Counted from the first letter of the stretch, positions 10,261 through 56,407 are shown. The stretch is DNA of 64,000 nt from a virus (IMGVR_UViG_3300046457_000175:1-64000), one strand, 5' to 3'. Made by a program: numbers and translations. Notes: a model not told the origin generated them from the letters alone.

Positions 10261-10289
10261 GGCTTGACCGTCTCGTTTGCATTCTGATA

Positions 10290-10305
10290 TTTGCATGAAT
10301 GCAAA
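10290..10305 (+). promoter_or_regulatory. 16-bp operator-like motif, copy 1 (TTTGCATGAATGCAAA), with extra half-site at 10276-10284
   Basis: Member of genome-wide repeat family; intergenic, upstream of A1-like gene. Confidence 0.75.
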
Positions 10306-10386
10306 AGTTGTGCTATCCCCGAGGCCGAAATCTCGGGGGTAGGCACTCCCTCGTGGTTCCGGGTTCCCAACCAACCACAGGGCAAA

Positions 10387-12378
10387 ATGACTTTTCAACC
10401 GCTCGCCACCGAAGAACGCGCTCGCAGAAAGCAGGTCATCGAAGATCTGCTGAAGCAGGGCTATCATCCGCAGGGCTCGCGTGGAGGCATTGCCTCCGCG
10501 ACCAAGACTGCGGAGCGCGTCGAAGGCCTGAACTATCCGAACTGGGTCCGCGCCGAAGAGGCGCTGAAGCGCAAGCGCAAAGAGAACTTCGCGATCGACT
10601 GGTCGCTGTACGTTCCGCCTGTCCCGCAGGCTACCGTCACCTCAGGTGGCGAAGAACTGTCCGCCGAAGAAGTCGACCCGTTGATCCGGGCGAAGACGCT
10701 CTCGGCCGAGGTTACCCAACTCATCACCCGATCGAAATACCCCGTCATCAACCCGGAAGCCGTCATCGTCGACACGCCGATGCTGCGACGCTGGTCCACG
10801 AAGCATCGTCGCTACGAGGAGACCGAAGGCAAGCCGCGGACCTGGATGGTCGACACCCTGAAGGTCGAGGCCATTAAGGACTCGCGGAATCGGAACTTCA
10901 TCTTCACGGGCGCGCAGAACGATGCGCTCCTGCACGAGGAGTTCTGGGTCAATCTCCAGGCCTATGCCGCCTATATCGACGCCGAGATCATCGTCGGCCC
11001 CTGGACCTACGAGACCCAGTGGTGGTCCGAGAACGACCCGCAGGCGCGCGAGTATGCCCCTGAGCTGGCTGAGCACCTGTGCTTCGGCCAGATGAAGATC
11101 GGCACCAACTTCATGTTCTGCGGCGAGATGAACACGCTGCCGACCGCGTCGCAGCCGATCTCGGACCTGGTGACCTACAGCCGGGGCCGCTGGGCCGTGT
11201 TCCCGCACGCCAAGCGCCAGCTGAAGTCCGTCCCCTCGACCGATCCCAACATCCAGGCCCACCAGGTCATGACGTCGGGCGCCTGCACGCGGCCGAAGAT
11301 CATCCCCCGCAAGGCGGGCGTGAAGTCGATCTTCCATCAGATCATCGGCGCCACCGTGGTGCAGTTCGACGAGGATGGCGACATCTTCTGTCGGCAGATC
11401 ACGGCCAACGACGACGACGGCTCGTTCTACGACCTCGACGCCTATGTGGCGAACGCTGAGGTCACAACCGGTCACCGCGTCAAGGCGATCACCATGCCGG
11501 ACCTCCACGTCCGCAAGATGGACCAGACCAACTGCATGGCCATCTTCGGGTGGGATATGCGGGGCGGCCGGGCGCAGTACCGCAACAGCATCATGGATGT
11601 CCTCGATCCCGAGAACGTCATCGGTCACGACATCTTCGACAACGAAGCGCGGAACCACCATCACGTCCACGACAACGCCTACAGCTACGAGATGGCCATC
11701 CGTGGCCGCGACAGCGTGGAGGAGGAAGTCGACCAGTGCGGCCGATTCCTGCTGACGGCTGTCGGTCTGAGCGACCTTCTGCCGATGGTCACGGTCGGCG
11801 ACCGCACCTTCATCGTTGCGGAGGGCAACCACGATATCGCGCTTGAGAAGTACGCCCGAGAAGGCCGGTACCGGAACGACGGCCGGAACGTCCGCTTCGG
11901 TCTGCAGCTCGAAGACGCATACCTGGATCACGTCGAGCGTCGCTCATTCGCGATCGACAACGAGCTGCCGGTGCCGCGTTTCTCGCTGCTGGAGCACGCT
12001 ATCCGGATGAAATATCCGCAGCTCGGCGACAAGGTGGTCTGGTGCCATGACGGCTACAGCCACCTGCTCGACGGCATCGAGGTCGGAAACCACGGCTTCC
12101 GCGGCGCGAACGGCGCCAAGGGAACGGTGGCGGGCTTCGCGCGGGCAGGGCGCAAGATGTCGATCGGCGACAAGCACAGCCCCGAGATCATGGAGGGTGT
12201 GTACGTGGCCGGCGTTATCAACCTGCGCCACGGCTACAACAAGGGCCTGTCGGGTTGGGCGGTCACCGTGATCATCCAGTATCCGGACGGGAAGCGCTCG
12301 CTGTTGACCCTGCAGAAGGGCAAGTGGCGTCCGGGACGGCGGGTCATCCGCGTGCCGGCCCCGTCTTTGGCTGCCTGA
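10387..12378 (+). CDS. Calcineurin-like metallophosphoesterase, phage T5 A1-like
   Basis: MPDLH, GHDIFD, EGNHD, NHG..GANG, GDKHSP, YNKG.SGW motifs; ATG at 10387 preferred to ORF-track start. Confidence 0.7.
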   Translation: MTFQPLATEERARRKQVIEDLLKQGYHPQGSRGGIASATKTAERVEGLNYPNWVRAEEALKRKRKENFAIDWSLYVPPVPQATVTSGGEELSAEEVDPLIRAKTLSAEVTQLITRSKYPVINPEAVIVDTPMLRRWSTKHRRYEETEGKPRTWMVDTLKVEAIKDSRNRNFIFTGAQNDALLHEEFWVNLQAYAAYIDAEIIVGPWTYETQWWSENDPQAREYAPELAEHLCFGQMKIGTNFMFCGEMNTLPTASQPISDLVTYSRGRWAVFPHAKRQLKSVPSTDPNIQAHQVMTSGACTRPKIIPRKAGVKSIFHQIIGATVVQFDEDGDIFCRQITANDDDGSFYDLDAYVANAEVTTGHRVKAITMPDLHVRKMDQTNCMAIFGWDMRGGRAQYRNSIMDVLDPENVIGHDIFDNEARNHHHVHDNAYSYEMAIRGRDSVEEEVDQCGRFLLTAVGLSDLLPMVTVGDRTFIVAEGNHDIALEKYAREGRYRNDGRNVRFGLQLEDAYLDHVERRSFAIDNELPVPRFSLLEHAIRMKYPQLGDKVVWCHDGYSHLLDGIEVGNHGFRGANGAKGTVAGFARAGRKMSIGDKHSPEIMEGVYVAGVINLRHGYNKGLSGWAVTVIIQYPDGKRSLLTLQKGKWRPGRRVIRVPAPSLAA

Positions 12379-12381
12379 TCG

Positions 12382-12397
12382 CTTGCACGAATGCAAA
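12382..12397 (+). promoter_or_regulatory. Operator-like motif copy 2 (CTTGCACGAATGCAAA)
   Basis: Between stop at 12378 and RBS/ATG at 12409. Confidence 0.75.
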
Positions 12398-12408
12398 AGG
12401 AAGTTTCG

Positions 12409-12873
12409 ATGCTCGTCTATCTCGCAGGCCCGATCTCAGGCCTTAACTTCGAGGGCGCCACCGACTGGAGGGAGTACGCGAAAGCGGAACTCTCGCAGTT
12501 CGGGATCAAGGGGCTCTCGCCGCTGCGCGAGCAGGAGCACATGAAGGCGATCGGTGTGTTCACCGACGCCGCAAAGGAGACCGAGCGGCTGAAGTCGCCC
12601 ATGTCCACGCCGAAGGGCCTCACGGTCCGTGACCGCTGGGACGCGATGCGCTGCAACGTGCTGCTGGTCAACCTGCTGGGTGCCACGAAGGTCTCGATCG
12701 GCACGGTGCTGGAGCTGGCATGGGCCGACTCCCAGGGCATCCCGATCGTGGTGGCCATGGAGGACGACGGGTCGAACCCGCACGAGCACGCGATGGTCAA
12801 CCACATCATCGGCTACCGCGTCACCACGCTGTGGGACGCCATCGATCTGACGCGGCAGCTGCTTGCTGCCTGA
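12409..12873 (+). CDS. Nucleoside 2-deoxyribosyltransferase / nucleotide N-glycosidase family protein
   Basis: VYLAGPI, D..AMRCNVLLVNL, SIGTVLELAWA motifs. Confidence 0.8.
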   Translation: MLVYLAGPISGLNFEGATDWREYAKAELSQFGIKGLSPLREQEHMKAIGVFTDAAKETERLKSPMSTPKGLTVRDRWDAMRCNVLLVNLLGATKVSIGTVLELAWADSQGIPIVVAMEDDGSNPHEHAMVNHIIGYRVTTLWDAIDLTRQLLAA

Positions 12874-12876
12874 ACG

Positions 12877-12892
12877 CTTGTTTGAATGCAAA
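12877..12892 (+). promoter_or_regulatory. Operator-like motif copy 3 (CTTGTTTGAATGCAAA)
   Basis: Between stop at 12873 and RBS/ATG at 12907. Confidence 0.72.
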
Positions 12893-12906
12893 GGAAGGAA
12901 TTGCAA

Positions 12907-13587
12907 ATGACGGTTATCGGTCTCGCGGGTTTCGCACAGTCGGGCAAGACGACGGCGGCGCTGTACCTGGAGAAGAAGTATGGCGTGCGGCGCAAGCACA
13001 TCGCCGAGCCGCTGCGGGCCATGCTCGCGGTGCTGCTCCAGGCGAACGGCATGTCGTCGGACATGATCAGCCGGTACCTGGAAGGCGATCTGAAGGAGTC
13101 CGTGATCCCCGAGCTGGGCGTCACCTCGCGCTACGCGCAGATCACCATCGGCACCGAGTGGGGTCGTGAGTTGATCGGCGAGGATCTGTGGTCCAATACC
13201 TGGGCTCGCGGCGTCAAGGACGGCGAGTCCGTTATGAACGACTCCGTGCGCTTCCCGAACGAGGCGGCTGCGATCCGCGGTCTCGGCGGCGTGGTCATCA
13301 TGATCAAGCGCCCAGGCACGCGGCCGGCGAAGTTCAAGAACAAGCTGGGCGAGTTCCTGTTCGACAAGTTCGGCATCATGTGGGGGGTGCATCCGAGCGA
13401 GCGCATCGACCTGATCAAGCCGGACTTCATCATCCACAACGATGCGGACGTGGAGACGCTCTACGCTGACCTGGACAAGGCCATGGCCGCGCATTTCAGC
13501 CGCGTCCAGCAGACGAGCTTCGCCAACTCCAAGAAGGCCGTCGCAGCGGCCACGGGGCTGGCGCTGGCGGTGGGGCTCGGCCGCTGA
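12907..13587 (+). CDS. Deoxynucleoside monophosphate kinase (T4 gp1-like)
   Basis: IGLAGFAQSGKT P-loop; RYAQITIGTEWGR; DSVRFPNE; HPSE. Confidence 0.88.
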   Translation: MTVIGLAGFAQSGKTTAALYLEKKYGVRRKHIAEPLRAMLAVLLQANGMSSDMISRYLEGDLKESVIPELGVTSRYAQITIGTEWGRELIGEDLWSNTWARGVKDGESVMNDSVRFPNEAAAIRGLGGVVIMIKRPGTRPAKFKNKLGEFLFDKFGIMWGVHPSERIDLIKPDFIIHNDADVETLYADLDKAMAAHFSRVQQTSFANSKKAVAAATGLALAVGLGR

Positions 13588-13865
13588 TGGAGCTTCGCTG
13601 GAAGGACGACAAGCGGCCCCAGCGCTTCGGCTGGGCGCCAGGGGGATATCTGAACCACTGTCACGGCGCGGGGTGCAAGGAGCTGGAAGACAAGACCTTC
13701 ATCGGCGACAAGCGGGCGGTCATCTGCGCCGACTGTGCCTACGCGCTGCCGGACCCGGAGCCGGAGCCGCCATTCGAGGTGACCATGCGCGCGAAGGTCA
13801 GGGACATGCTCCGGCGCATCAGGGAGCTGGAGATCGAGCTGGAAAAGCACCAGGAGGGGAAATGA
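13587..13865 (+). CDS. Hypothetical protein with Cys pairs
   Basis: Abuts dNMP kinase stop; C..A.C and C.DC pairs. Confidence 0.6.
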   Translation: MELRWKDDKRPQRFGWAPGGYLNHCHGAGCKELEDKTFIGDKRAVICADCAYALPDPEPEPPFEVTMRAKVRDMLRRIRELEIELEKHQEGK

Positions 13866-14041
13866 GGCTGATCAACATGAAGCTGACCCGGGGTGACGCA
13901 GAGGTCATCACCCCGGAGCAGGTATGGGCGGAGATCGGCAAGATCTTCGTGCAGCGCGCGACCGGAGAGCTGAAGCCCACCGGTCCGGTCAGGACCAACC
14001 GGCCCCAGGTCAACGTGCGGGAGCTGTTGAAGGACCTGTAG
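13862..14041 (+). CDS. Hypothetical protein (59 aa)
   Basis: ATGA overlap and GGAGG RBS. Confidence 0.55.
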   Translation: MRLINMKLTRGDAEVITPEQVWAEIGKIFVQRATGELKPTGPVRTNRPQVNVRELLKDL

Positions 14042-14046
14042 GAAGA

Positions 14047-14310
14047 TCAGGCGTAGATGGAGGGGGCGGTGACCTGCGGCTTCACGGTCGTCCGCACCCC
14101 GGTCCGGACATGCCGGCCGCCGATTTCTTCAACGACAGCACGCACCTCCTTGCCGAACAGGCGGCGCATGCCGTGCGAGAGAACACCGAAACGGTCGGTG
14201 ATCAAGAGGTCAAGTTCACGCAACGGCGAGCGATTCTGCCGGCGAGATGCCTCGATGATCGTGAGGCAAGCGGTCTCATGGAGGAAGGCGCGAATTTGCA
14301 GAGACTTCAT
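14047..14310 (-). CDS. Hypothetical protein (87 aa)
   Basis: AAGGA RBS; converges with the rightward operon. Confidence 0.5.
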   Translation of the reverse strand: MKSLQIRAFLHETACLTIIEASRRQNRSPLRELDLLITDRFGVLSHGMRRLFGKEVRAVVEEIGGRHVRTGVRTTVKPQVTAPSIYA

Positions 14311-14360
14311 GGGGGATTCCTTGTGGCGGGGACGCTCACATACCCCTTTTCAAGATGCGT

Positions 14361-14396
14361 AAAAGGGGGTCCTCCAACTATTTCGACTAGACCCCC
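14361..14396 (-). terminator. Leftward intrinsic terminator with an overlapping alternative hairpin
   Basis: Minus-strand GGGGGTC...GACCCCC-TTTT. Confidence 0.55.
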
Positions 14397-14417
14397 TAGC
14401 GTTTGCCGCGGCGCAAC

Positions 14418-17708: not shown

Positions 17709-18340
17709 GCTGCGATCTCCGTGGCTTGGACGTTGTCGTTGTCGAACTTGCTTATCTCGTTGCCCCAGGCGTCCCAGCCGGGGCGCTGCACGCGGGCGAA
17801 GATGTCGGCCTTCGGATATGGCCCAGCCATCTTCGCGGCATCGACGTAGCCTTGCTCGGGCTTGCGCGAGTGCTCGCGGCGCGTCTCAAGGATCGCGGAG
17901 CGGATGTTGCGAGAGTGAATGCGGGGCTTGCCGATCTTCCCGATCAGGAAAGGCTCATGGCAGTTGCGCAGGACGTAGCCCGTGCCGAAGGTCGGCCGGC
18001 TCATATCCTTGACCATCTTCACCCACACGCCCTGGGTCACGTAGGTGACGTTCCACTGGCGGAAGCACTCGCGAGCGGCGTCGTACATCGGCGCGGTGGC
18101 GTAGAGCCAAACCCACATGCCATCGCGATGGGCGAGGCGATCAACGTCGAGCGCGAAGATGTCGTCGAGCGTCATGCAGTCGTAGTGCTGCTCAGCCGAC
18201 TTGCCCTTGCCGGCGTCGGAGTAGGTCTTGAAGGTCCACGGCGGGTCGATCTTCGCGAGGCCGTAATGGTTCTCCTTCAGCGGAGCGAGATTGAATGTCG
18301 GTGCCGGGATGATCGGCATGGGGCTGACGAGCATTTGCAT
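17705..18340 (-). CDS. MT-A70-family adenine methyltransferase (start may be 18334 or 18319)
   Basis: DPPW, Y.CM.LDDI, W.K, G.GY.LR...E, HSRKP, IFAR..RPGWDAWGNE. Confidence 0.9.
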   Translation of the reverse strand: MQMLVSPMPIIPAPTFNLAPLKENHYGLAKIDPPWTFKTYSDAGKGKSAEQHYDCMTLDDIFALDVDRLAHRDGMWVWLYATAPMYDAARECFRQWNVTYVTQGVWVKMVKDMSRPTFGTGYVLRNCHEPFLIGKIGKPRIHSRNIRSAILETRREHSRKPEQGYVDAAKMAGPYPKADIFARVQRPGWDAWGNEISKFDNDNVQATEIAA

Positions 18341-18349
18341 TCAAGCAAG
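18334..18349 (-). promoter_or_regulatory. Operator-like motif copy 4 (top strand TTTGCATTCAAGCAAG)
   Basis: At the junction of upstream stop and MTase start. Confidence 0.75.
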
Positions 18350-20289: not shown

Positions 20290-20305
20290 TTTGCATTAAA
20301 GCAAA
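20290..20305 (-). promoter_or_regulatory. Operator-like motif copy 5 (top strand TTTGCATTAAAGCAAA), with extra half-site at 20277-20285
   Basis: In the divergent intergenic region. Confidence 0.7.
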
Positions 20306-20511: not shown

Positions 20512-20832
20512 ATGAGAACAATAATGAACACGTCCTTCGAGTATCGGTCCTATCAAGTCAGCCACGACGGCGTCGCTTTCACCGCCGAACCCCAGGACGG
20601 GGAACCCTTCCAGCTCAGATCGAAGAACATGCTTCGCGTCACTCGGGCGATCGATACCCTTTGGAATGCCCTCGAAGGAACCGTTGCCGCCCCGGCCTGG
20701 CTGTTTGAAGAGACCAGTTCCGTCGATCTCGATGCGGCCTCGGAGGCTATGCTGATCGTTGACCGTCCGAAGTCGGTGACCTACTTCCCTTTAGGGCCCA
20801 TGGCTGGGATGCCCGCCCGCGCCGCAGCCTGA
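20512..20832 (+). CDS. Moron gene 1, unknown domain paralogous to the N-terminus of the next gene
   Basis: YRSY.V....F.A.....AID.LW..LE....PAW......DLD; start 20512 or 20524. Confidence 0.6.
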   Translation: MRTIMNTSFEYRSYQVSHDGVAFTAEPQDGEPFQLRSKNMLRVTRAIDTLWNALEGTVAAPAWLFEETSSVDLDAASEAMLIVDRPKSVTYFPLGPMAGMPARAAA

Positions 20833-20840
20833 GGCTCGTG

Positions 20841-21449
20841 ATGACGACGATCTACCGGAACTACGTTGTCGCTCGTGTGGGCGACAAGTTCGTTGCTAAG
20901 TCGCCGGATGATGAATGCCTGCTGGTGTCATCACAGCAGCAACGCCTTCACGCAGCGATCGACGACCTCTGGGATTCTTTGGAGAAGGGGGCCGAGCCTG
21001 CGTGGTTCTCCGGCAGCTCTGCCATCGATCTCGACACATTCGGGCCGGAAGCGGTGCCGTCGAGTTCTGACCCCCCTGAGTCGACGCCGAGGCCGGTTCT
21101 GAGGATCAGCTACGTCGCCTTCGTCGCCACGGCGGTAGCTGTGTCTGCGCCGGTATCCTATTTCATGGAGACGATGTGCTGGCCGATGCGGGTCGACGTC
21201 CTGTTGACCCTCGGGGTTTGTGCGGTCGCGGTGGCCTTCGGTAGGCGCTACGCACTGATCGCGGCCGGGATCGCAGCAGTCGTATTCAACTTTTGCGCCG
21301 TGGAGCCTCTATTGGCGTTCACGGTTCCTACGACGAGTGAGATTGTCCTGATGGCGTTCAATCTCATCGCCGCTCTCGGCATTCCCGAGTTGCTCAAACT
21401 GCGATGTCTTCAGGCCGCACAAGGGAAAGGCCGAACTCGGCGCATCTGA
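20841..21449 (+). CDS. Moron gene 2: same unknown domain fused to a DUF4118/KdpD-like membrane domain
   Basis: Four hydrophobic helices with AVAFG..YAL.AA...A..FNF..VEP...F. Confidence 0.65.
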   Translation: MTTIYRNYVVARVGDKFVAKSPDDECLLVSSQQQRLHAAIDDLWDSLEKGAEPAWFSGSSAIDLDTFGPEAVPSSSDPPESTPRPVLRISYVAFVATAVAVSAPVSYFMETMCWPMRVDVLLTLGVCAVAVAFGRRYALIAAGIAAVVFNFCAVEPLLAFTVPTTSEIVLMAFNLIAALGIPELLKLRCLQAAQGKGRTRRI

Positions 21450-23501: not shown

Positions 23502-23752
23502 CGGAACGCCTTGCATGCGTCGCCGCTCCGGAATGTGCCGGAGGGGCAGGCCGTGCCGGGGATGTACGGGTATGCGCGCGGGGTGTCCTTGTGGAGCGCC
23601 TCGCACTTGTCGCCGAGTCCGACGTAACCCGTGGGGCACGTTCCAGTGCGCTGGATGCGCTCCCTGCCATCTGGAGTCGGTGTGGGATATTTGGTCTCGG
23701 CGAGCGCAGGGGCTGCCAGGGTAAGCAAGACGAGGGCGATGATCTTCTTCAT
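23498..23752 (-). CDS. Small secreted Cys-rich protein
   Basis: Signal peptide (PALA); two repeats CP.G....GD.C. Confidence 0.65.
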   Translation of the reverse strand: MKKIIALVLLTLAAPALAETKYPTPTPDGRERIQRTGTCPTGYVGLGDKCEALHKDTPRAYPYIPGTACPSGTFRSGDACKAFR

Positions 23753-25002
23753 GGCTGATCTCCAATGATCTTTTTCAGTTCCTGACTGAGCAGTATTGAA
23801 ACCGCCCGCTTCTCGGGCAGCATGTCGTATTTGTCGTAGACGGCGGTGACGTCGCCATCGATGTGGTCGAGCATTGCCTTGACGTCCGGTCGCGGGGCGC
23901 CGCAGCGCCGGGCAAGAGTGGCCGCGGTGCGCCGGAGGTCGTGCGGGGTGAAGTGTTCCATCTTGAGGAATGACCGAATGCCGACCCGGTTCGAGCGCTC
24001 CTTGTCGTTCAAAGCCTGAGACAAAGAGCTGCGCTTGATCTCGACCTTCTCCCCGTACTTGGATGGGAAAAGACAGACCTGCTTCTCGTCCTTGATGGCG
24101 GCCTTGATGACCTCCGTTGCCAGCGGCGAGACAGGCACGATCACCTCGCGCCGGCCCTTCACCCTGATAGGAGGCATCTGGTACTGGGCATGCTCCGTGC
24201 CGAGCCCGCTGATCTCCGACAGGAGGGCGCCGGCCGCCTGGTATGGTCGGACCATGGTGGCCAGAACCATCTTCAGCGCGAGCGCCACCTGGCGATCACA
24301 GGGCACGTCCGGATGCTCCAGACCCCACCAGAGCGTCCTAATCTCGTCGTCGGATAGGACCCTGTTCCGAGCCTTCTCCGATCCGCCGCGGCGCTCCATG
24401 CCGGTGATCGGATTGGAGGGCACGTATTTCCGGCCGGGCTGCCTGGCCCATTCGAACATCTTGTGGATAACCGACTGCGTCCGGTTGGCGCTGATCGGGG
24501 CATCCTCGGCGATCTCGTCAAGGACATCGGCAATGTCGTCGTCCGTCACCGTGTGCGCTGGCATGTGCCCCAGGGCGACCTTGGGGCGTTTCAGGTAGCC
24601 CTCGTCGTTCTTCCAGGAGGACTTGTTCGGCTTTGCGTACTCCTCCATGTAGGCGTCGCAGAGAGCTTCGAACGAGAGATCCTCTGCACGGGCCGCAGCG
24701 CGCCGCTCGCGCCGCTGTTCGGATCGGGGGTCCTTGTCGTCGCCGATCTTCTTGCGCTGCTCGGCGGCCTTCTCTCGGGCCAACGCGAGGGAAATGTCCG
24801 GATACCGACCGAGCGATATCCGGACCGCCCGCGAGAGCAGGGGCGACCAATAGGTGAGCGCGAAGGACTTGGCGCCGGACTTGAACACCCGGACCTTGAG
24901 CCCGGGGCAGGCATCGTCCGCGACGTCGATCTGCTCTTTTTCTTGGGGGCATTTGAGCCCTGTGATATGCTTGTCAGTGAGCCTTGGCACCCTAGTCTCC
25001 AA
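23749..25002 (-). CDS. int: Tyrosine integrase with N-terminal arm-binding domain (P4-like)
   Basis: GLKVRV..SG.KSF..LG.YP.ISLA.AR; catalytic R, K, HDLRRT, LDH, Y; adjacent to attP. Confidence 0.95.
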   Translation of the reverse strand: METRVPRLTDKHITGLKCPQEKEQIDVADDACPGLKVRVFKSGAKSFALTYWSPLLSRAVRISLGRYPDISLALAREKAAEQRKKIGDDKDPRSEQRRERRAAARAEDLSFEALCDAYMEEYAKPNKSSWKNDEGYLKRPKVALGHMPAHTVTDDDIADVLDEIAEDAPISANRTQSVIHKMFEWARQPGRKYVPSNPITGMERRGGSEKARNRVLSDDEIRTLWWGLEHPDVPCDRQVALALKMVLATMVRPYQAAGALLSEISGLGTEHAQYQMPPIRVKGRREVIVPVSPLATEVIKAAIKDEKQVCLFPSKYGEKVEIKRSSLSQALNDKERSNRVGIRSFLKMEHFTPHDLRRTAATLARRCGAPRPDVKAMLDHIDGDVTAVYDKYDMLPEKRAVSILLSQELKKIIGDQP

Positions 25003-25066: not shown

Positions 25067-25082
25067 TTTGCATCCGTGCAAG
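25067..25082 (-). promoter_or_regulatory. Operator-like motif copy 6 (top strand TTTGCATCCGTGCAAG)
   Basis: Between attP core and int start. Confidence 0.72.
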
Positions 25083-28411: not shown

Positions 28412-28533
28412 GGTCACTCCAAAAATTGACAAATAGAAAAGACGTCTATCGGAACCGCCCCGGTCACCCAATCGAGTGCCGGGGCTTTGCATGGAGGCAA
28501 TCCATGCAATCCGTTGTGTTGTCGCGGAGGTCG

Positions 28534-29454: not shown

Positions 29455-29470
29455 GTTGCATTCAAACAAA
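29455..29470 (-). promoter_or_regulatory. Operator-like motif copy 7 (top strand GTTGCATTCAAACAAA)
   Basis: Upstream of TAXI gene. Confidence 0.65.
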
Positions 29471-30010: not shown

Positions 30011-30026
30011 TTTGCATTCAAGCGCG
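30011..30026 (-). promoter_or_regulatory. Operator-like motif copy 8 (top strand TTTGCATTCAAGCGCG)
   Basis: Intergenic. Confidence 0.65.
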
Positions 30027-32074: not shown

Positions 32075-32090
32075 TTTGCATTCATGCGCC
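32075..32090 (-). promoter_or_regulatory. Operator-like motif copy 9 (top strand TTTGCATTCATGCGCC)
   Basis: Upstream of terB. Confidence 0.65.
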
Positions 32091-36354: not shown

Positions 36355-36370
36355 TTTGCATTCAAGCAAG
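36355..36370 (-). promoter_or_regulatory. Operator-like motif copy 10 (top strand TTTGCATTCAAGCAAG)
   Basis: Between stop at 36373 and next start. Confidence 0.75.
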
Positions 36371-36594: not shown

Positions 36595-37048
36595 CTTGCT
36601 TGCCCCGCTTTGGAAATGGCCTTGATTGCCACTTCTTCTTGCGCCGAGGCTGCTCAGGCGCCTCCGCTTCGGGGTCACCTTTGGCCAGCATTCGACGTCG
36701 AAAATCTTCGGTGTCTCTCGCTATCCGCTTGGTGCGGGCGATCTCCTGCACGTCACCGCGCGTCAGCTCCTCGCGGGAGCCGAACGTTTTCTTCGCGTGA
36801 CAATCTGTGTGCTTGGCAAAGATGAACTCCGGATCGTTGGACCGCGGAGTGACGTCCTTGGCTTCAGCGTCCCAGCACCTCAGCTGGATTGCGGGGACGT
36901 GGTCGAATTGGGTGTCGTCGAGCTTGCCCAGTCGCTGACCGCATTGGGTGCAGAGGCTGTGCTGTCTGATCACCACCTCAAGCTTCACGGTGACCGGGAT
37001 GGCCTTCCGGAAGCCTGTAGGAGGGGCAAGGTCGAGGACGCTGGGCAT
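36557..37048 (-). CDS. HNH-like nuclease
   Basis: CTQCG...QFDH.PAI...N....HTDCHAKKT. Confidence 0.72.
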   Translation of the reverse strand: MPSVLDLAPPTGFRKAIPVTVKLEVVIRQHSLCTQCGQRLGKLDDTQFDHVPAIQLRCWDAEAKDVTPRSNDPEFIFAKHTDCHAKKTFGSREELTRGDVQEIARTKRIARDTEDFRRRMLAKGDPEAEAPEQPRRKKKWQSRPFPKRGKQDAKSRSRGEEGS

Positions 37049-37060
37049 TTGCTTTTCCTA

Positions 37061-37076
37061 TTTGCATTCGAGCAAA
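37061..37076 (-). promoter_or_regulatory. Operator-like motif copy 11 (top strand TTTGCATTCGAGCAAA)
   Basis: 12 nt upstream of HNH start. Confidence 0.75.
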
Positions 37077-37091
37077 AGGTCAAGCAAATGT

Positions 37092-41971: not shown

Positions 41972-41987
41972 CTTGCATTCAAACAAA
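41972..41987 (-). promoter_or_regulatory. Operator-like motif copy 12 (top strand CTTGCATTCAAACAAA)
   Basis: Immediately after dnaQ stop. Confidence 0.7.
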
Positions 41988-45881: not shown

Positions 45882-45897
45882 TTTGCAATCGTGCAAA
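45882..45897 (-). promoter_or_regulatory. Operator-like motif copy 13 (top strand TTTGCAATCGTGCAAA)
   Basis: 10 nt upstream of ATG at 45871. Confidence 0.75.
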
Positions 45898-46681: not shown

Positions 46682-46715
46682 TGGTCTCTCCTTCTGTGTT
46701 TGCATTAGCATTTCG

Positions 46716-46731
46716 TTTGCATTCAAGCAAG
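46716..46731 (-). promoter_or_regulatory. Operator-like motif copy 14 (top strand TTTGCATTCAAGCAAG), with half-site at 46699
   Basis: Between helicase stop and ssb start. Confidence 0.75.
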
Positions 46732-48497: not shown

Positions 48498-48498
48498 G

Positions 48499-49378: not shown

Positions 49379-49394
49379 TTTGCACGAATGCAAA
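49379..49394 (+). promoter_or_regulatory. Operator-like motif copy 15 (TTTGCACGAATGCAAA)
   Basis: In the divergent rep/ruvC spacer. Confidence 0.75.
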
Positions 49395-50149: not shown

Positions 50150-50165
50150 TTTGCAATCACGCGAA
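50150..50165 (-). promoter_or_regulatory. Operator-like motif copy 16, degenerate (top strand TTTGCAATCACGCGAA)
   Basis: Upstream of repressor gene. Confidence 0.5.
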
Positions 50166-50340
50166 ACCTATCGTATTTGCCGTTGTTAGCATCCACGCAA
50201 ACGGATGGACATGGGCAACGATGACTGCAAACACTTTACCCCTTTTCAGAATTTGCTGACTGTTCAGTATTGCACACAAGGGCCCCGCCTGGGGCTCACT
50301 AAGAACTTGTTATGCGAACCATGATAATGGAGGATCGCAA

Positions 50341-51054
50341 ATGGCATTGGCAGCGAGTCAAATGAAGAAGCAGACCCCGAAGGAGATCGTGATCGAATGG
50401 ATCGATCACATCCTCGATCGAAAGAAGTGGACTGGAACCGACCTCGCGCGGCACGCCGAGCTGGCTCCGTCAACGATTCTGCGTCTCCTCAACAACCCGA
50501 AGCATCCCTTCATCCCTACAGTCTCTACCCTGCGGAAGATCGCCGATGGCTCGGGTTACCCGATCCCGAAGAAGGTGATGGCCGCGCTCGGAGCTGAGGG
50601 TGAGATGGCGTCGTCCGCTGAGATGGAGCCCGATAACGTTCGTCGCCTCCACGTTCGTACGGCTCGGTCCGCCACGGTCGAGCTGCGCCATGTGTCGTCG
50701 CTGCCGGCCGCTCTGCAGTCCGCGGCGAACCCGCAGCGTGAGGGCTACGTGCCGGCTCCGCCCCAGCTTGAGGGGGACGAGACTGCCTTCGCCTTCCACA
50801 TGCCCGACAACTCGTTCGGCATGTGGTTCAAGACCGGCGGCCTGATGTACGCGACCAAGCGGCGCGATCCTCTGCCTGGCGACATGGTGATGGTCACGGA
50901 CAAGAACGGGAAGACCCGGGTTCGTCTGCTGATGGATATCACAGAGAACGGCCTGAAACTGACGAAGTCGATGCCGGAGAAGGAAGACGAAATCCTGACC
51001 TTTGACCAGGTCGCCGAGATCGCCATCGTCATCGTGACGGTTCGGCAGATATAA
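50341..51054 (+). CDS. cI-like repressor: Cro/C1-type HTH + S24-peptidase-like C-terminal domain
   Basis: TDLARHAELAPSTILR...P.VSTLRKIA; FAFHMPDNSF...GDMV. Confidence 0.8.
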   Translation: MALAASQMKKQTPKEIVIEWIDHILDRKKWTGTDLARHAELAPSTILRLLNNPKHPFIPTVSTLRKIADGSGYPIPKKVMAALGAEGEMASSAEMEPDNVRRLHVRTARSATVELRHVSSLPAALQSAANPQREGYVPAPPQLEGDETAFAFHMPDNSFGMWFKTGGLMYATKRRDPLPGDMVMVTDKNGKTRVRLLMDITENGLKLTKSMPEKEDEILTFDQVAEIAIVIVTVRQI

Positions 51055-51056
51055 TC

Positions 51057-51080: not shown

Positions 51081-51456
51081 ACACCTCGAACAACTTCTCG
51101 ACCCGCTTTAGCATCATCCGGATCGTCTGCGGTGGCGATGTCATAACATCGACATTGAAGTCTTCTTCCAGCTGAGTGAGCTGCTTCAGCCATTCTTCAG
51201 CTTCCCGAACAGCGGGGAGATCGACCTGCGGCTCCCACCGCAGCCTCTGGATCTCAAGCGCTGTCTTCTGGATTTCGAAGTCCAGATAGTCGAGAAACTC
51301 TCGCAGCTGAACAGTCAGTCGTTCAACCGCCGGCTCTATCACCATCAAGGACTCGCAGATGTCCGACATGATGCCAGGAAGGCGATCCTTGAACTTTGGG
51401 TTAATTGGACGCGGCACCGTTTCCGGCATCGCCGCAACACTGTTCTTCATCGTCAT
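51079..51456 (-). CDS. Hypothetical helical protein
   Basis: ATGA coupling to cro-like gene. Confidence 0.55.
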   Translation of the reverse strand: MTMKNSVAAMPETVPRPINPKFKDRLPGIMSDICESLMVIEPAVERLTVQLREFLDYLDFEIQKTALEIQRLRWEPQVDLPAVREAEEWLKQLTQLEEDFNVDVMTSPPQTIRMMLKRVEKLFEV

Positions 51457-51734
51457 GCGTCCACCTTATTACGCAGTTTTTTGCGACGCTCCCGGCCCTC
51501 GACAGCATTGAGGTCAGACTTCGTCGGCTTGAACGGCTGCAATCCTCGATCGATTGCCGACAGCGCGAGCGCCGTGGCTTTCGTTACGCCACGTTGCTCG
51601 TACATGCCGACCGCCTGAGTCGTCAGACCAAGCCAGTCAGCCAGGTCTGATTGCGTGAGACTTCGCGAAATCCGGAACGCTTTTACTTCCTCGCCAGTGA
51701 GGTACTTCTTCGATGCGTTGCGACTGAGCGCCAT
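51453..51734 (-). CDS. Small Cro/XRE-family HTH regulator
   Basis: VKAFRISRSLTQSDLADWLGLTTQAVGMYE. Confidence 0.82.
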   Translation of the reverse strand: MALSRNASKKYLTGEEVKAFRISRSLTQSDLADWLGLTTQAVGMYEQRGVTKATALALSAIDRGLQPFKPTKSDLNAVEGRERRKKLRNKVDA

Positions 51735-51793
51735 TGCTGACCTCTTCCTAAAAGGCACGACAAAATTGCATTCCTACCGGACAGGCCGGGTAC

Positions 51794-52081
51794 TCACTCC
51801 ACACACACTGGCAGCGGCCGAATGCCTACTCCGCAGGCGGGACACCATCTCCTGGCGCTTCCCCTGTTTTTCAGCTTTCGTTCGAAGGTTCTCGACGCTC
51901 CCGGGAAAAATGTGGCGACATGCACGCGGCTGCCAGCTGCTACAGCAGCCTTTACCAGCGGCGAGCCGCGCCCCGCGAGATGCTGCTGAAGTCTTCGTTC
52001 AGGCGTTTCATCCTCGCAGAATCCGATGTAGTGTCCAGCATGCTGATAGCTGGGATCGAAGTGCAGTAGATAGACACTCAT
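51794..52081 (-). CDS. GIY-YIG-like nuclease
   Basis: VYLLHF...HYIG...RRLQQH..G.GS. Confidence 0.75.
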   Translation of the reverse strand: MSVYLLHFDPSYQHAGHYIGFCEDETPERRLQQHLAGRGSPLVKAAVAAGSRVHVATFFPGASRTFERKLKNRGSARRWCPACGVGIRPLPVCVE

Positions 52082-52284
52082 TTGCTTTCTCGCAACGTCG
52101 GCGTGGGCAGTGTCTCTGCCTTTGGCGCAGGCCTGATCCGCGCCAGATGCTTCAATTTCCACTGATCGCGAACAATTAGGACCAGTTCGGACCGAGGTGC
52201 TGGCTCAGATACCGCTCGCCACCGCGGGCCAGGACTTGTGAGCGCCCAGACGACGTACAGCGCGGGCATCGGCTTCGGCTTCAT
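52078..52284 (-). CDS. Hypothetical protein
   Basis: GGAGG RBS. Confidence 0.55.
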   Translation of the reverse strand: MKPKPMPALYVVWALTSPGPRWRAVSEPAPRSELVLIVRDQWKLKHLARIRPAPKAETLPTPTLRESK

Positions 52285-52577
52285 GTTGCCTCCTTTATTT
52301 TGATGAAGTTGGTGATTGGGCCGTCGCCCTCGTCGAACACATTGACGATGCCGCGACCCTCCAACTCGTTGATGGGAATCCACATCGTGAAGGTGAGGCC
52401 CTGAGGCGGGGCTACGTGCTCGATGCACTCGATGAGTCCGTCAGCACCGGGGAGGGTGGTCTGCTCGTTGTCATCGTGATCGGCGCCTGTGCAGGCACCG
52501 AGCATCGTCACACGCTGGCCGACCTTGAAGCCCTCGGCTTCCGGCAGACCATGGCGGTGGTCGAGCTGCCTATCCAT
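52281..52577 (-). CDS. Hypothetical protein (SH3/KOW-like)
   Basis: FKVGQRV..L pattern. Confidence 0.5.
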   Translation of the reverse strand: MDRQLDHRHGLPEAEGFKVGQRVTMLGACTGADHDDNEQTTLPGADGLIECIEHVAPPQGLTFTMWIPINELEGRGIVNVFDEGDGPITNFIKIKEAT

Positions 52578-52953
52578 AGACGATGTCCCCGAGCACGCAG
52601 GCCTGGAGGAAGACGTCTGCTGTCTCGGCGTCGCCGGTCTCCTTGACGATCTCCTCGATGCGATCGAGGTGATTGTCGGCGAGCCACTGCAAGCCCTTCT
52701 GCAGAGACTCCGGCGTGAAGAAGAGCTTCGTGCCGTCCTCTGCATCAGCGACCTCGATCCTGAAGTCGCCAGCCCAGATCGTCTCGTCGTCGTACCAGGG
52801 GCTGACCTTGGTCTTGATCTTCCTTCCGTCCGCTGGCTTGAAGCTACCGCACCAGTAGCCGGAGCCGCCCTCGATCGCCGTCACGATCTGGTCGGTGATC
52901 TTGCGCCAGGTGAGCCCGTTGATGGTCAGCGGGATTGTCGTTGTGTCAGTCAT
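52570..52953 (-). CDS. Conserved phage hypothetical protein
   Basis: AIEGGSGYW...DAETADVFLQ..VLGDIVYG. Confidence 0.72.
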   Translation of the reverse strand: MTDTTTIPLTINGLTWRKITDQIVTAIEGGSGYWCGSFKPADGRKIKTKVSPWYDDETIWAGDFRIEVADAEDGTKLFFTPESLQKGLQWLADNHLDRIEEIVKETGDAETADVFLQACVLGDIVYG

Positions 52954-52962
52954 GTGTACCTC

Positions 52963-53160
52963 TCAGGCGAAGTCGAGTTCGCCGTATCCATCTTCTGTGA
53001 AACGGTTGGATCGTCGGTGCTCCCCGGATCGTCGGGGCGAAGATCTCCGCTCACCTCTGCTGGTGGTGATGACCTCGGAGACACTCGCCTCGTCGAACTC
53101 CTCGTCGAGGAGCGTGACGGTGTCCCAGCTGAAGTCGCCTGGGCGTCGGGGGTTTTTCAT
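52963..53160 (-). CDS. Hypothetical protein
   Basis: AAGGAGG RBS with ATGA overlap. Confidence 0.45.
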   Translation of the reverse strand: MKNPRRPGDFSWDTVTLLDEEFDEASVSEVITTSRGERRSSPRRSGEHRRSNRFTEDGYGELDFA

Positions 53161-53915
53161 GCTGCCTCCTTGGCGCGCTCGAAGTTCTTCGCGCCGACGC
53201 CGTGTGCGATGATGGTGATGTCCGATTTGGCCTTGGTCCGAGCGCCCCCGCAGAGGAGGCACTGCGCGCACTGCGTCGCCTTGCCCATCTCCTTGCTCGC
53301 CGGGCAGTGGCCTTCGCCGCTCAGCTTCGGTTCGTCCTTGCCGCGGACACGAAAGGTCCGGAAGCCGAGAGCCTTGGCTTCTTCGCGATCCTGCTCGCTG
53401 TCGCAGGACGCCATGCAGAATGCCGACAGCGTCGGATACTGGCGCCACAGATGCGTGTAGCCAGACAGCTCGGTCACGAGATCGAGGGACTGCTCCCAGA
53501 CGTGGAAGGGGACAGCGCCGGGATCGCCATAGGCGCCCAGCCGAACCCGCCTGTGAGCCAGCAGCTTGCGTGCCTTGGCCAGGGGGACATCGGGATAGAT
53601 GCCACGGGAGAACGCATCCCAGACCACGCGCGGGCCCTGGAATAGGGTCACGTAGCAGGACCGGCCGACGTTCTTGCGCTCGCCAGTCTTCAGGTCGGTG
53701 ACGATCTTGCCGCGATGGCCGCAGCCGCCGCAGATCGACACATCGTCGCCAGTCTGCACCGCCTTGAGCGGGCTCTGGTCAGCCCGCATGATGTAGACCT
53801 GGATCATGTGGCCGGTTTTGGAATTGTTGCCACCGGTCATCAGGCCGGTTGCGATCACGATGATCGGCTGCTCGTCGATCACTGATGGGCCACGGTAAAG
53901 AACGAAACCGTTCAT
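53157..53915 (-). CDS. Cys-rich conserved phage protein, possibly Fe-S / radical-SAM-like
   Basis: N.KTG.M.Q, ICGGCGHR..CYV, VRLG.YGDP, GYTH.W, MAS.DS, CPAS..QCAQCLLC. Confidence 0.6.
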   Translation of the reverse strand: MNGFVLYRGPSVIDEQPIIVIATGLMTGGNNSKTGHMIQVYIMRADQSPLKAVQTGDDVSICGGCGHRGKIVTDLKTGERKNVGRSCYVTLFQGPRVVWDAFSRGIYPDVPLAKARKLLAHRRVRLGAYGDPGAVPFHVWEQSLDLVTELSGYTHLWRQYPTLSAFCMASCDSEQDREEAKALGFRTFRVRGKDEPKLSGEGHCPASKEMGKATQCAQCLLCGGARTKAKSDITIIAHGVGAKNFERAKEAA

Positions 53916-53928
53916 GGGTCTCTCCTCG

Positions 53929-53944
53929 TTTGTATTCATGCAAA
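53929..53944 (-). promoter_or_regulatory. Operator-like motif copy 17 (top strand TTTGTATTCATGCAAA)
   Basis: Overlaps upstream stop; precedes GAGGAG RBS. Confidence 0.7.
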
Positions 53945-54307
53945 GCTCGGGACAAGCCGATCCAGCGGATGCGGCTCAGTGAGCGACAGCTCAATCTGCG
54001 CTCGGCGGAGCTGGTTGGTGACGATGCGGATTTGCTTGCGCTTGCGGGCCTTGAAGTCGTTGATCGCGTCTTCTTCGGTCTCCGAAAACTTTTTCTTGAA
54101 TGCGGTGAGCAGTTGGAACTCACCGCACACCCAGGCGCCTTTCGGCGTCCGGCGATCGACGGGGTACCACCGCAACTCCAGGCGCGGGGCGGTGAACCCG
54201 TACTGCTCGCGATCGGCATCGATGATGTAGGAGTAGCTCTGGGCCTCGCACCGCCAGAGAGCGTCGACTCCCTCTGGCGGTTTGCCGTGCGGATGGTGCA
54301 GCCTCAC
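53936..54307 (-). CDS. Hypothetical protein
   Basis: GTGA overlap with helicase stop; PV.RRTPKGAW motif. Confidence 0.55.
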   Translation of the reverse strand: MRLHHPHGKPPEGVDALWRCEAQSYSYIIDADREQYGFTAPRLELRWYPVDRRTPKGAWVCGEFQLLTAFKKKFSETEEDAINDFKARKRKQIRIVTNQLRRAQIELSLTEPHPLDRLVPSFA

Positions 54308-55890
54308 GCTGCCTTCTCCTTCGGCTGCTTCACGTTGTCGTTGACAGCCTTCTGCTTCGGCATCGGCGGCAGCAGGTCGATCAGCTCGCCCATGGAGCGG
54401 GTGGCTGCGACATACTGAAGGTGCTTCTCCTGCTCCATTTCCCAGTCCATCGAGGCATACTTCGAAGGGCAGGTGTTGAACCGATCGAGCCAGAAGACCC
54501 GCTTCCATTCACGTCCCTTGGCTCGATGGATGGTCGACAGCGTCAGGATGCCGGTCACGTTGTCGGCGAAGATGTTGTCGATGTAGGCGACGACATCCGT
54601 GATCCTGTGGAGCTTGGCCTCACGGCAGGCATCCATCACGACCTTGAGCGTCTCGACCTTGTCCTCGGCCTCCTGGACCTTGGACATTTTCTTCTTGGGC
54701 AGCCACTTCGCCCGCTCTTTCTCCAGCCATTCCTCGAGTTTTTCTTCGAGGGCCGAGATGTTGGCGATCGACTTCCATCGGGTAGCCAGCTTCTTCAGCT
54801 GCTCGCCGATGTCCCGGCCTTCGATCCGGCAGGGGATCTTGGCGCGGATCAGTGCGAATGCCGCGGTGACCAACGGTCGAGTGTTACGGCAGAGGATCGA
54901 GGAGTCGCCGTCCAGGCGGGCCGGATTGAGCATCATCTGCTCGAAGCCCTCCAGAGTGACTGACCCCTCCGGCGCGGACTCGTGAGCCTGGATGTGGTTG
55001 ACCCACGTCTGAGCCATCTTGACCACCGCCTTGGGGCACCGGTAGGTGACCGTCAGCGGCATCTCCTTGGCATTGAAGTCCTGCTTGATGATCTCGATGC
55101 TGTCGTTGTCGGCGCCCGTGAAGCCGTAGATGGCCTGATGGGGATCACCGACCGCGAACAGTCGAGCGCGGGGCTTCATCAGGGCCTTCGCCAGCAGCCG
55201 GCGCACCGTGTTGGTGTCCTGCGCCTCGTCGATCCAGACGTTGTCGTATTGGAAGAACCTGATCTGGTAGATCAGGGGCAAGTAGATCATGTCGTCGAAG
55301 TCGATGATCTCCGGCTCGGAGTTCGATGCCTTCAACACCTCGATCGACAGGTCGATGAGAGCGTCGGCCTTCTTTGCCAGCTCCTCGCTGTCGAACAGAT
55401 CGAAGTGCTCGACGATGTCCTCCCAGATGGAGGTGTCGTCGATGTGGCCGTAACCCTGGATACCGACGCCGCTCTGCTTGGCGAGCGAGACCAGATGGCA
55501 GACGACGGAAGCGTGGAACGCCAGGTCGGAGCCGATCTTGCCGGACTCGATCCAGCCCTCGGTGATGTTGGCGACCTTCTCCTTCACCGTGCGGACCTTG
55601 GGGAACGCCTTGCGGTAGTTCCGGAAGCCGATGGAGTGTACGGTTGCGGCCTCGGCCTTCTTCCAGTCGATGCCGGCCTGCTGAAGCTTGCCCTTGATCT
55701 CCTCGGCAATCTTCTTGTTGAAGGACAGGATGATGGAGGAGCCCCGCATGCGCTCCACCGTCTTGATGATGGTGGTGGTCTTGCCGGCGCCGGCCACGGC
55801 GATCAGCACCAGGGAGCTGGTACCGTTCCAGGCTTCGTGCTGGAACGCCGCCTGCTGCGGGGATGGAACCCAAATTGATGGAGCTTGCAT
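54304..55890 (-). CDS. UvrD/Rep-like SF1 helicase
   Basis: AVAGAGKTT, SFNK, T.HS.G, IDEAQD, VGDPHQAIYGF.GA, TYRCP, STIHRAKGREW, YVAATR. Confidence 0.93.
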   Translation of the reverse strand: MQAPSIWVPSPQQAAFQHEAWNGTSSLVLIAVAGAGKTTTIIKTVERMRGSSIILSFNKKIAEEIKGKLQQAGIDWKKAEAATVHSIGFRNYRKAFPKVRTVKEKVANITEGWIESGKIGSDLAFHASVVCHLVSLAKQSGVGIQGYGHIDDTSIWEDIVEHFDLFDSEELAKKADALIDLSIEVLKASNSEPEIIDFDDMIYLPLIYQIRFFQYDNVWIDEAQDTNTVRRLLAKALMKPRARLFAVGDPHQAIYGFTGADNDSIEIIKQDFNAKEMPLTVTYRCPKAVVKMAQTWVNHIQAHESAPEGSVTLEGFEQMMLNPARLDGDSSILCRNTRPLVTAAFALIRAKIPCRIEGRDIGEQLKKLATRWKSIANISALEEKLEEWLEKERAKWLPKKKMSKVQEAEDKVETLKVVMDACREAKLHRITDVVAYIDNIFADNVTGILTLSTIHRAKGREWKRVFWLDRFNTCPSKYASMDWEMEQEKHLQYVAATRSMGELIDLLPPMPKQKAVNDNVKQPKEKAA

Positions 55891-55932
55891 GGTCCTCGTC
55901 TCGGTCTTTGGTGGGGGACGGTTAGCATTGCG

Positions 55933-55948
55933 TTTGCATTCAAGCAAA
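55933..55948 (-). promoter_or_regulatory. Operator-like motif copy 18 (top strand TTTGCATTCAAGCAAA)
   Basis: Intergenic, upstream of helicase. Confidence 0.78.
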
Positions 55949-55955
55949 CAAAAAA

Positions 55956-56375
55956 TCAAACGTCGACGGTCTCATTGGTCAGGGCGACGTCTAGCTGTGC
56001 CGGCGACAGGCTGGCGACCATGCCGGGCATCTCGATCGCCCGGAGAGCCTTCAGAGCCTTGACGATGCGGTTGGCCTTCTCCTCGGAGCGAGGCTTGGCG
56101 ATCAGCTCGCGGCCCTCGAAGATCAGCCAGCAGTTGTCGTAGATGTCCTGGATCGCGAACACCTCGTCGTTCTCGCCGAAGAAGATGGTCTTGATCTCCG
56201 GAGTGAGGTACTGCGACTGGACCATCGACGCATAGCAGTGCTTGTCGAGCAGCCCTTTGTTGATCAGGCTTTTCGCCGAATTGACGTAGCCCTTGGACAG
56301 ATACAGCGTGTTCATTGGCTCGGCGATCACACGAGCGATGATGCGCTCTTGCAGCTTAGTGAGGGTCTTGGCCAT
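55956..56375 (-). CDS. Hypothetical protein
   Basis: GGAGG RBS. Confidence 0.6.
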   Translation of the reverse strand: MAKTLTKLQERIIARVIAEPMNTLYLSKGYVNSAKSLINKGLLDKHCYASMVQSQYLTPEIKTIFFGENDEVFAIQDIYDNCWLIFEGRELIAKPRSEEKANRIVKALKALRAIEMPGMVASLSPAQLDVALTNETVDV

Positions 56376-56391
56376 TTCAATCCTCCTTGTC

Positions 56392-56407
56392 TTTGCATGC
56401 ATGCAAG
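56392..56407 (-). promoter_or_regulatory. Operator-like motif copy 19 (top strand TTTGCATGCATGCAAG)
   Basis: Directly upstream of RBS. Confidence 0.7.

Follow-up and report, generated by a model that had tools for sequence, protein, structure and literature searches.

Oriented 16-bp dyads dispersed across the genome of a temperate alphaproteobacterial phage: a candidate operator network of a CI-like repressor

We examined a recurrent 16-bp dyad motif in a 64,000-nucleotide stretch of viral DNA (IMGVR_UViG_3300046457_000175:1-64000; henceforth the window), which makes up the first 64 kb of an IMG/VR virus record of 119,289 bp and 98% completeness; positions beyond the window are given as genome positions. 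The motif is dispersed over the genome in about 30 copies that lie at the junctions between genes and point in the direction of transcription, and both properties are conserved in a family of related phages. We consider it probable, albeit with substantial reservations, that these copies are the distributed operator network of a CI-like lysogeny repressor, for which the most likely candidate is a 237-aa protein encoded at 50341-51054 (+). This protein couples an N-terminal Cro/C1-type helix-turn-helix (HTH) domain to a C-terminal domain with a predicted LexA/lambda-CI fold.

The consensus of the dyad is TTTGC(T/A)TG-AATGCAAA, the 3′ half being near-invariant (93-100% per position) and the 5′ half variable at indices 0, 4, 5 and 6. 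Dimer operators of the 434/lambda type have this same geometry, in which TTGC-N6-GCAA is combined with strong conservation of one half. Additional ATGCAAA half-sites occur, often 6-10 nt downstream of a full site; non-coding DNA is enriched for them about ten-fold. When up to three mismatches are allowed on both strands, the pattern YTTGCWYGAATGCAAA has 28 matches in the whole window; a comparison with shuffled sequence, of the kind proposed in an earlier, sequence-only reading of the window, gives an expectation of 1.56 +/- 1.37, with a maximum of 5 (100 dinucleotide shuffles). All 19 positions listed in that reading match the pattern with 0-3 mismatches and in each case on the strand it gave, and the longer shared contexts it had described at 46705/55922 and at 10272/20273 are both present. 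A weak extra copy at 28486 (+) was absent from its list. Its statement that the virion/lysis module (1-10260) has no good copy also holds; a match with two mismatches at 3785 (-), inside the tape-measure gene, probably reflects chance.

A weight matrix (PWM) built from the window sites retrieves 31 sites at a cut-off of PWM >= 18 from the whole genome, spanning 10290 to 107002. With the same matrix, 30 sites are found in the 121-kb Bradyrhizobium phage BDU-MI-1, the only isolated relative (about 75-77% nucleotide identity over roughly 60% of the genome), and 22-34 in each of three fetched relatives. A pattern search of five proviruses recovers 16-26 matches in each and none with the reversed pattern as a control. 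As a bacterial sample, we used 301 genomes of 1.3-8.9 Mb from the order holding the Methylobacterium genome that served as the search centre, which we took to be the order of the host. Here the pattern has 0-9 matches per genome (at most one mismatch), a density roughly thousand-fold below that in the phages, and a scan of genome contigs with the motif pattern returned only scattered single matches at chance level. These figures bear directly on the notion that the dyad is the site of a host global regulator, for example of the CRP/FNR-FixK type, which would tie phage expression to host physiology. The TTGC-N6-GCAA spacing is that of the FNR/FixK-type boxes, TTG(A/C)-N6-(T/G)CAA; however, the scarcity of matches in the 301 genomes as against 16-26 per 120 kb of phage, together with the invariant GAATGCAAA half and a strict orientation that is foreign to FNR-type boxes, renders this explanation very improbable, and a host regulon was rejected on the background frequency.

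For placement, we pooled 142 sites from five related genomes (that of the window is designated G000, and G001, G002 and G003 denote relatives). The motif is co-oriented with the next gene at 133 of them (binomial p = 2e-29), and overlaps coding sequence by more than 8 nt at only 13, the remaining 129 being essentially non-coding in genomes where coding sequence makes up 85.5% of the DNA (p = 6e-92). Both the intergenic placement and the orientation with gene direction asserted in the sequence-only reading are thereby borne out; the motif is not equally frequent in coding or structural regions (13/142 in coding sequence), and in the bacterial sample it stays at background level. A co-oriented gene lies upstream of 105 sites, which are thus inside operons, and the other 37 head a unit. 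Moreover, orientation flips locally at the rightward islands at 49379 and 67999 within the leftward arm; hence, it tracks transcription and not replication, and a replication-strand bias was rejected on this ground. Taken together, the motif is phage-specific, intergenic and transcription-oriented. A separate, conserved antisense copy is seen between two leftward genes at genome 85477 (+), BDU-MI-1 100713 (-) and G003 63597 (-), followed by a second TGCAAA and GC-rich hairpins; it could be a reversed operator, or the signature of a small antisense transcript.

The relationship of the motif to promoter-like elements is variable between sites yet conserved within each site. TTGAC, the alphaproteobacterial -35 core, occurs upstream of 25 of the 142 sites as against 2.6% of the motif-less gene starts, in four discrete registers (-31/-30, -26/-25, -11 and -7/-6), and the orthologous site groups each keep their own layout in 4-5 genomes. 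In the 37061 group (window 37048-37085, -), the order CTTGACTG, motif, TAnnnA, 6 nt and ATG is conserved in five genomes, and the G002 orthologue is devoid of a Shine-Dalgarno sequence, which suggests a leaderless start. In the 49379 group, TTGACA is followed after 17 nt by TATTTG, such that the -10 element overlaps the first bases of the motif (4 genomes). In the 105261 group, the arrangement is TTGACA, 16/17 nt, CTTAAT, ca and then the motif, which would put the latter at about +1 to +16. Some promoter-overlapping copies carry group-conserved variants (TAAT in the 20290 group and GCTAA in the 86187 group) that read like a compromise between an operator and a -10 element. Since its position relative to TTGAC varies in this manner, we interpret the motif as an operator rather than as a promoter or activator element; the conserved sequences imply that several copies would lie over promoters.

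The principal alternative makes the motif a promoter element or an activator site specific to the phage, at which an unrecognised phage factor redirects the host RNA polymerase, in the manner of T4 MotA/AsiA or gp55, so that early and middle transcripts start at or near the motifs. It gains from the roughly 30 oriented copies that head all divergent units and precede the ssb and major capsid genes, from a -35-like TGCC/TTGAC at index -11 in about 60% of the sites, and from the left half TTTGCTTGA, which resembles the T4 MotA box. It would also account for the counter-oriented two-gene "moron" at 20524-21449 (+), which has no motif copy, unlike the opposite-strand islands at 49379 and 67999, and for the way in which the motif keeps close to the gene start where intergenic regions are long. 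The lack of a copy at the moron fits the operator reading as well. Nevertheless, several lines of evidence make it unlikely. In about 40% of the sites, the start codon lies only 9-17 nt after the motif with a Shine-Dalgarno sequence in between, so a transcript starting 20-35 nt downstream would miss the gene. No -10-like element is found at a fixed register: the aligned sites have no -10-like column anywhere from -45 to +60 around the motif, and a canonical sigma-70 promoter at a fixed register was rejected, as at most 2/142 sites have one at any offset. Furthermore, the shift of the motif relative to TTGAC, from the spacer to about +1 to +16, is unusual for activators.

Nor did our searches recover a suitable factor. 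A phage-encoded RNA polymerase, the mark of a T7-like system, was sought by a six-frame PF00940 search, which gave no match and whose controls were unable to give a signal; the large proteins scanned also lacked a polymerase match, and no unassigned open reading frame (ORF) of more than 800 aa is left to encode one. Sigma70_r2 has no match in the genome, and the single Sigma70_r4_2 match is weak (E = 0.013) and lies in the likely small-terminase gene. Likewise, no known activator was found among roughly 60 proteins scanned. A promoter served by a phage RNA polymerase or sigma factor was rejected on these results. A loading site of the RfaH/NusG "ops" type was dismissed too, there being no NGN domain in the genome, as was a sigma-54 promoter by inspection, the distance from the upstream TGCC to TTGC being one base too long and the GG missing. 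Terminator-promoter pairs were rejected because terminators lie upstream of 6/142 sites as against 42/849 other gene starts.

Distances between the motif end and the start codon peak sharply at 10-14 nt, and none is below 9-10 nt for a credible start; smaller groups of sites lie 21-26 and 33-43 nt before the start. This spacing, together with the Shine-Dalgarno sequence cGGAG directly 3′ of the terminal GCAAA of the motif and the strictly sense orientation, is what would be expected of an mRNA leader element beside the ribosome-binding site, read by a phage RNA-binding protein, a small RNA or a nuclease that controls translation, processing or stability. Similarly, the C>T variant at index 4 would retain a G-U pair, and the motif forms an AU-rich island in a genome of 61% G+C. 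On the other side, the arm variants (index 11 G>A/T, index 13 A>T and index 2 T>A/C) are never compensated in the opposite arm, the hairpin is marginal (-1.5 to -3.6 kcal/mol), and an Rfam search gave no family match; on these grounds an RNA or single-strand hairpin was rejected, and with it the RNA-level hairpin that the sequence-only reading had offered as an alternative. About one-third of the sites are more than 45 nt from any start codon, the copies of the 37061 group sit in a promoter spacer upstream of the likely transcript start, and the 50150 and 85477 groups are conserved antisense copies. Of 97 motif-internal ATG triplets, 18 are in frame with the gene, and their use as a start does not exceed chance. 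This also disposed of a coding explanation by a TGA-ATG stop/start junction or a mini-ORF in the motif. We accordingly deem an mRNA element quite unlikely.

Turning to the protein that might read the operators, the 50341 product displays HTH_26/HTH_3 matches at its N-terminus. Its AlphaFold model has a mean pLDDT (predicted local distance difference test) score of 71.5, with both domains at 80-94 and a disordered linker, and the closest solved folds of the model are LexA (3jsp/1jhf), lambda CI (3bdn) and 186 CI (probability 1.00, E = 6e-4). There is no sequence-level PDB match. The sequence-only reading had called it an HTH-S24 protein: the HTH stands and the predicted C-terminal fold is like that of LexA/lambda CI, but a Pfam scan of the G000 protein finds no S24 domain; two homologues carry a precomputed PF00717 match. 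Among 29 homologues, some as distant as 48% identity, the recognition helix PSTxLR does not vary, an invariance that would match that of the motif. A DxSF motif is conserved in the family, and in our alignment reading the expected position of the LexA catalytic lysine appears to be occupied by an invariant R195; the protein may hence lack self-cleavage and be induced by another route.

This protein is present in all five genomes, and the motif is found at 28/28 IMG/VR loci encoding it. No other clear regulator emerged when 30 unknown core proteins, in addition to the larger ones scanned earlier, were searched with Pfam; the 50341 protein is the only clear conserved one. Its gene lies on the strand opposite to the surrounding lytic genes, and has two weak reversed copies of the motif upstream. 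One is the degenerate copy at 50150-50165 (-), the orientation exception of the sequence-only reading, which is indeed reversed and remains so in the relatives; the other, at 50186-50201 (-), had gone unlisted. The repressor gene is convergent with that of a 93-aa Cro-like HTH_3 protein (51453-51734, -), which had been put forward as the other possible binder. It is an unlikely one, because G003 retains 34 sites and has no homologue of it. Upstream of the Cro-like gene is a 550-bp gap in which the gene caller had missed an ORF at about 51790-52081 (-), beginning MSVYLLHFDPSYQHAGHYIGF; a degenerate copy, GTTGCGAGAAAGCAAA (52096-52081), overlaps its ATG, and a full copy does likewise in G002.

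If these copies are operators of a CI-like repressor, a dimer would read the two arms, TTGC(A) and (T)GCAA, which are one helical turn apart. The 3′ half GAATGCAAA would act as the high-affinity "consensus" half and the 5′ half, YTTGCWYG, as the tunable one, as in lambda operators, with the nearby ATGCAAA half-sites possibly adding cooperativity. In a lysogen, about 30 sites across the early/middle arm would be occupied by the repressor, as would a few key points in the late arm. At unit heads, where a site falls over the -35/-10 spacer, the -10 element or the first transcribed bases, initiation would be blocked; inside operons, between a stop codon and the next ribosome-binding site, the bound repressor would either halt stray elongating polymerase in an orientation-dependent manner or shut weak internal promoters.

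Several observations sit uneasily with this operator network. Index 7 is a conserved G where symmetry calls for a T, and so the dyad is broken in a way that a symmetric homodimer alone is insufficient to explain. TGCCTT recurs at indices -10 to -5 in about 60% of the sites, even within the coding end of the upstream gene (GCTGCCTGA). In long intergenic regions, 28 sites are at most 20 nt from the downstream start as against 4 that are at most 20 nt from the upstream gene, a proximity that a pure roadblock does not need, with the figure being partly inflated by upstream stretches that are actually coding but uncalled. Copies precede highly expressed genes, such as those for the major capsid protein and ssb, which fits a promoter too. 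The -10-like hexamers are non-canonical (TAnnnA/G) and missed by strict sigma-70 scans, and the argument that operators overlie promoters therefore leans mainly on the conserved TTGAC hexamers. Finally, the co-occurrence of the protein and the motif is confounded by all carriers belonging to one phage family, making the arguments for the binder circumstantial.

A more specific proposal, which we regard as possible but rather doubtful, is that a proteobacterial phage has independently evolved stoperator-type silencing by means of an ordinary dimeric CI/LexA-like repressor. The conserved asymmetry of the near-palindromic operator would let the bound dimer obstruct RNA polymerase in one direction only at about 30 gene junctions, and a 120-kb prophage would thereby be kept transcriptionally silent. 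To our knowledge, well-documented cases of oriented repressor sites across a whole genome are confined to actinobacteriophages (the L5 type) and, in a different form, P1. An operator network of a CI-like repressor would, if true, be a third, independently built system of this kind, with a lambda-like repressor and in an alphaproteobacterial phage family, and would show whether polar roadblocks require a special monomeric repressor or a classical dimer suffices. It would also furnish an easy sequence marker for the prophage family and its immunity group, and a compact orientation-dependent transcriptional insulator for rhizobial genetics. Were the motif a promoter instead, the transcription map of an unstudied phage group would be defined.

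The individual copies in the window illustrate the range of these contexts. The first, TTTGCATGAATGCAAA at 10290-10305 (+), lies 81 nt before the T5-A1-like gene and has an inverted extra half-site, TTTGCATTC, 5 nt upstream. Just after it, the leader of the A1-like gene features a hairpin with a 12-bp stem, GCTATCCCCGAG...CTCGGGGGTAGG (10312-10344, +), which looks selected because it is kept in BDU-MI-1 and G003 with compensatory changes (ACCCCCGGG/CCAGGGGGT). The next two copies are squeezed between genes, with the upstream stop codon 3 nt before each and the next ATG 11 nt after that at 12382-12397 (+) and 14 nt after that at 12877-12892 (+). At 18334-18349 (-), the motif itself forms the gene junction, its TGA being the upstream stop and its ATG the start of an MT-A70 methylase. 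The variant TTTGCTTTAATGCAAA at 20290-20305 (-) heads a leftward unit and is followed by a second GAATGCAAA, and the copy at 25067-25082 (-) is 76 nt upstream of the integrase gene. Start codons lie 33 nt downstream of the copy at 29455-29470 (-), and 24 and 39 nt downstream of those at 30011-30026 (-) and 32075-32090 (-), respectively, both of which have a degenerate left half. For the copy at 36355-36370 (-), this distance is 17 nt, and the 150 nt upstream are non-coding. That at 37061-37076 (-) fills the 17-bp spacer from a conserved CTTGAC to TAnnnA, with the ATG 6 nt on.

Further along the leftward arm, the copy at 41972-41987 (-) comes 3 nt after the stop codon of a DnaQ-like gene, and a GATT variant at 45882-45897 (-) has a terminator-like hairpin 12 nt before it and an ATG 10 nt after it. 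The copy at 46716-46731 (-) precedes ssb by 34 nt and is followed downstream by a second AATGCTAA/TGCAAA repeat. The one at 49379-49394 (+) heads the rightward island comprising a RuvC-like gene and the repressor gene. At 53929-53944 (-), the TGA of a GAATACAAA variant serves as the stop codon of the upstream gene, with the next ATG following after 13 nt. The copy at 55933-55948 (-) precedes a UvrD-like helicase gene by 42 nt. In four relatives, a second palindrome with the same arms and a T-run centre (TTTGCATTTTTTGCAAA) is situated 6-7 nt upstream of the helicase-gene site (BDU-MI-1 ~9240, G001 ~24780, G002 ~25930 and G003 ~89915); the window's own genome does not have it. A perfect palindrome, TTGCATGCATGCAA at 56392-56407 (-), directly follows a GC-rich hairpin and has an ATG 16 nt after it. 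Such GC-rich hairpins, which have no T-run and abut the 5′ end of the motif, occur at window 56408-56436 (-), before the gene at 55956-56375, and at genome 106975-107001 (+), in front of the major capsid gene; stem covariation is seen among the relatives.

The genome that bears this array combines P2/Mu-like tail genes with an SPP1-like capsid, and codes for a T5-A1-like protein, rIIA, a class II ribonucleotide reductase and a tyrosine integrase (23749-24990, -), the last recognized by matches to the Arm-DNA-bind_3 and Phage_integrase domains. Five more IMG/VR relatives, of 115-128 kb, are all classed as proviruses, and homologues of the 50341 protein are found on Bradyrhizobium chromosomes of 8-9 Mb. 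From the integrase, these provirus-classed relatives and the chromosomal homologues, it follows that the family is temperate, as the sequence-only reading had supposed. It is common as a prophage in Bradyrhizobium chromosomes and widespread among soybean-nodulating Bradyrhizobium. A literature search returned nothing on the biology of BDU-MI-1 and nothing on TTGC-N6-GCAA. Two further features of these genomes deserve mention. In G003, two motif sites are repeated with identical flanks 117,311 bp apart (4400/5871 and 121711/123182), and the last 10.3 kb are about 75% identical to the first 10.3 kb at the same 117,311-bp offset; either a terminal duplication or an artefact of assembly explains this repeat in a provirus-classed record. 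In the window's genome, ARAGORN predicts a 96-nt tRNA-Ser with an AGA anticodon at 79201-79296 (-), with a weak copy of the motif, ATAGCACAAATGCAAA, about 39 nt upstream at genome 79336.

Among known systems, the closest parallel to the genomic pattern is offered by the stoperators of cluster A mycobacteriophages (L5 gp71, Bxb1 gp69 and the TipsytheTRex repressor), whose orientation is strikingly correlated with the direction of transcription (PMC9283540). As in that L5 type, at least 20 copies of one site are dispersed across a temperate phage genome (31 in G000 and 22-34 in its relatives), and they lie in putative promoters and in short intergenic gaps, oriented with transcription (133/142 co-oriented, 129/142 non-coding and 105/142 with a co-oriented gene upstream). 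However, the L5-type site is a fully asymmetric one of 13-14 bp bound by a repressor monomer with an HTH and a "stirrup" domain (PMC9283540), neither of which is seen here; instead, we find a 16-bp near-palindrome and a candidate CI/LexA-like protein that is presumably a dimer. The hosts also differ, being Actinobacteria there and Alphaproteobacteria here, the sites are nearly absent from the virion genes in the present phage, and the block to elongation in one orientation, a feature of the L5 type, is putative here. The candidate repressor is unrelated to the monomeric L5-type repressor, and the resemblance is one of analogy and not homology.

A second parallel is phage P1, also a large temperate myovirus, whose C1 protein has many dispersed operators of about 17 bp overlapping the promoters of early functions at varying positions. 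With several sites over or just after -35/-10-like elements, part of the present array looks like such ordinary promoter operators and not like stoperators. In the P1 consensus ATTGCTCTAATAAATTT, drawn from the operators annotated in NC_005856, 9-10 of the first 11 bases agree with TTTGCTCTAAT/TTTGCTTGAAT here, a likeness that is probably due to chance or convergence. Homology with P1 C1 was rejected, as no homologue was found in the five genomes by tblastn or phmmer (best E values 0.67-5). Unlike the present motif, P1 operators are not palindromic on their own, and the P1 prophage is a plasmid whereas this phage integrates. The T7 class promoters and the T4 MotA-box promoters are comparable in having dozens of oriented, conserved motifs of 9-23 bp just upstream of genes; they differ in that our scans found no phage polymerase, sigma or MotA/AsiA-like factor, and the motif keeps no fixed register to a -10 element or the start codon.

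With lambda and 434 CI, the common ground lies in the protein and its putative site: an N-terminal Cro/C1 HTH joined to a predicted LexA-like C-terminal fold, i.e., the HTH plus S24-like beta domain of lambda/LexA-type repressors as judged by the HTH matches and the AlphaFold model, and an operator of 14-17 bp whose arms, 4-5 bp each, are separated by one helical turn (434: ACAA-N6-TTGT), with one half better conserved. In contrast to lambda and LexA, the candidate has no Pfam S24 match, and the position of the catalytic lysine appears to be an arginine from our alignment reading. In lambdoid phages, two clusters at divergent promoters hold six operators between them, and the repressor gene diverges from cro; here there are about 30 single co-oriented sites over 100 kb and a repressor gene convergent with a Cro-like gene. 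Thus, the genomic pattern is L5-like, the protein and the dyad geometry are lambda/434-like, and the number, dispersal and orientation of the sites are unlike those of lambda/434.

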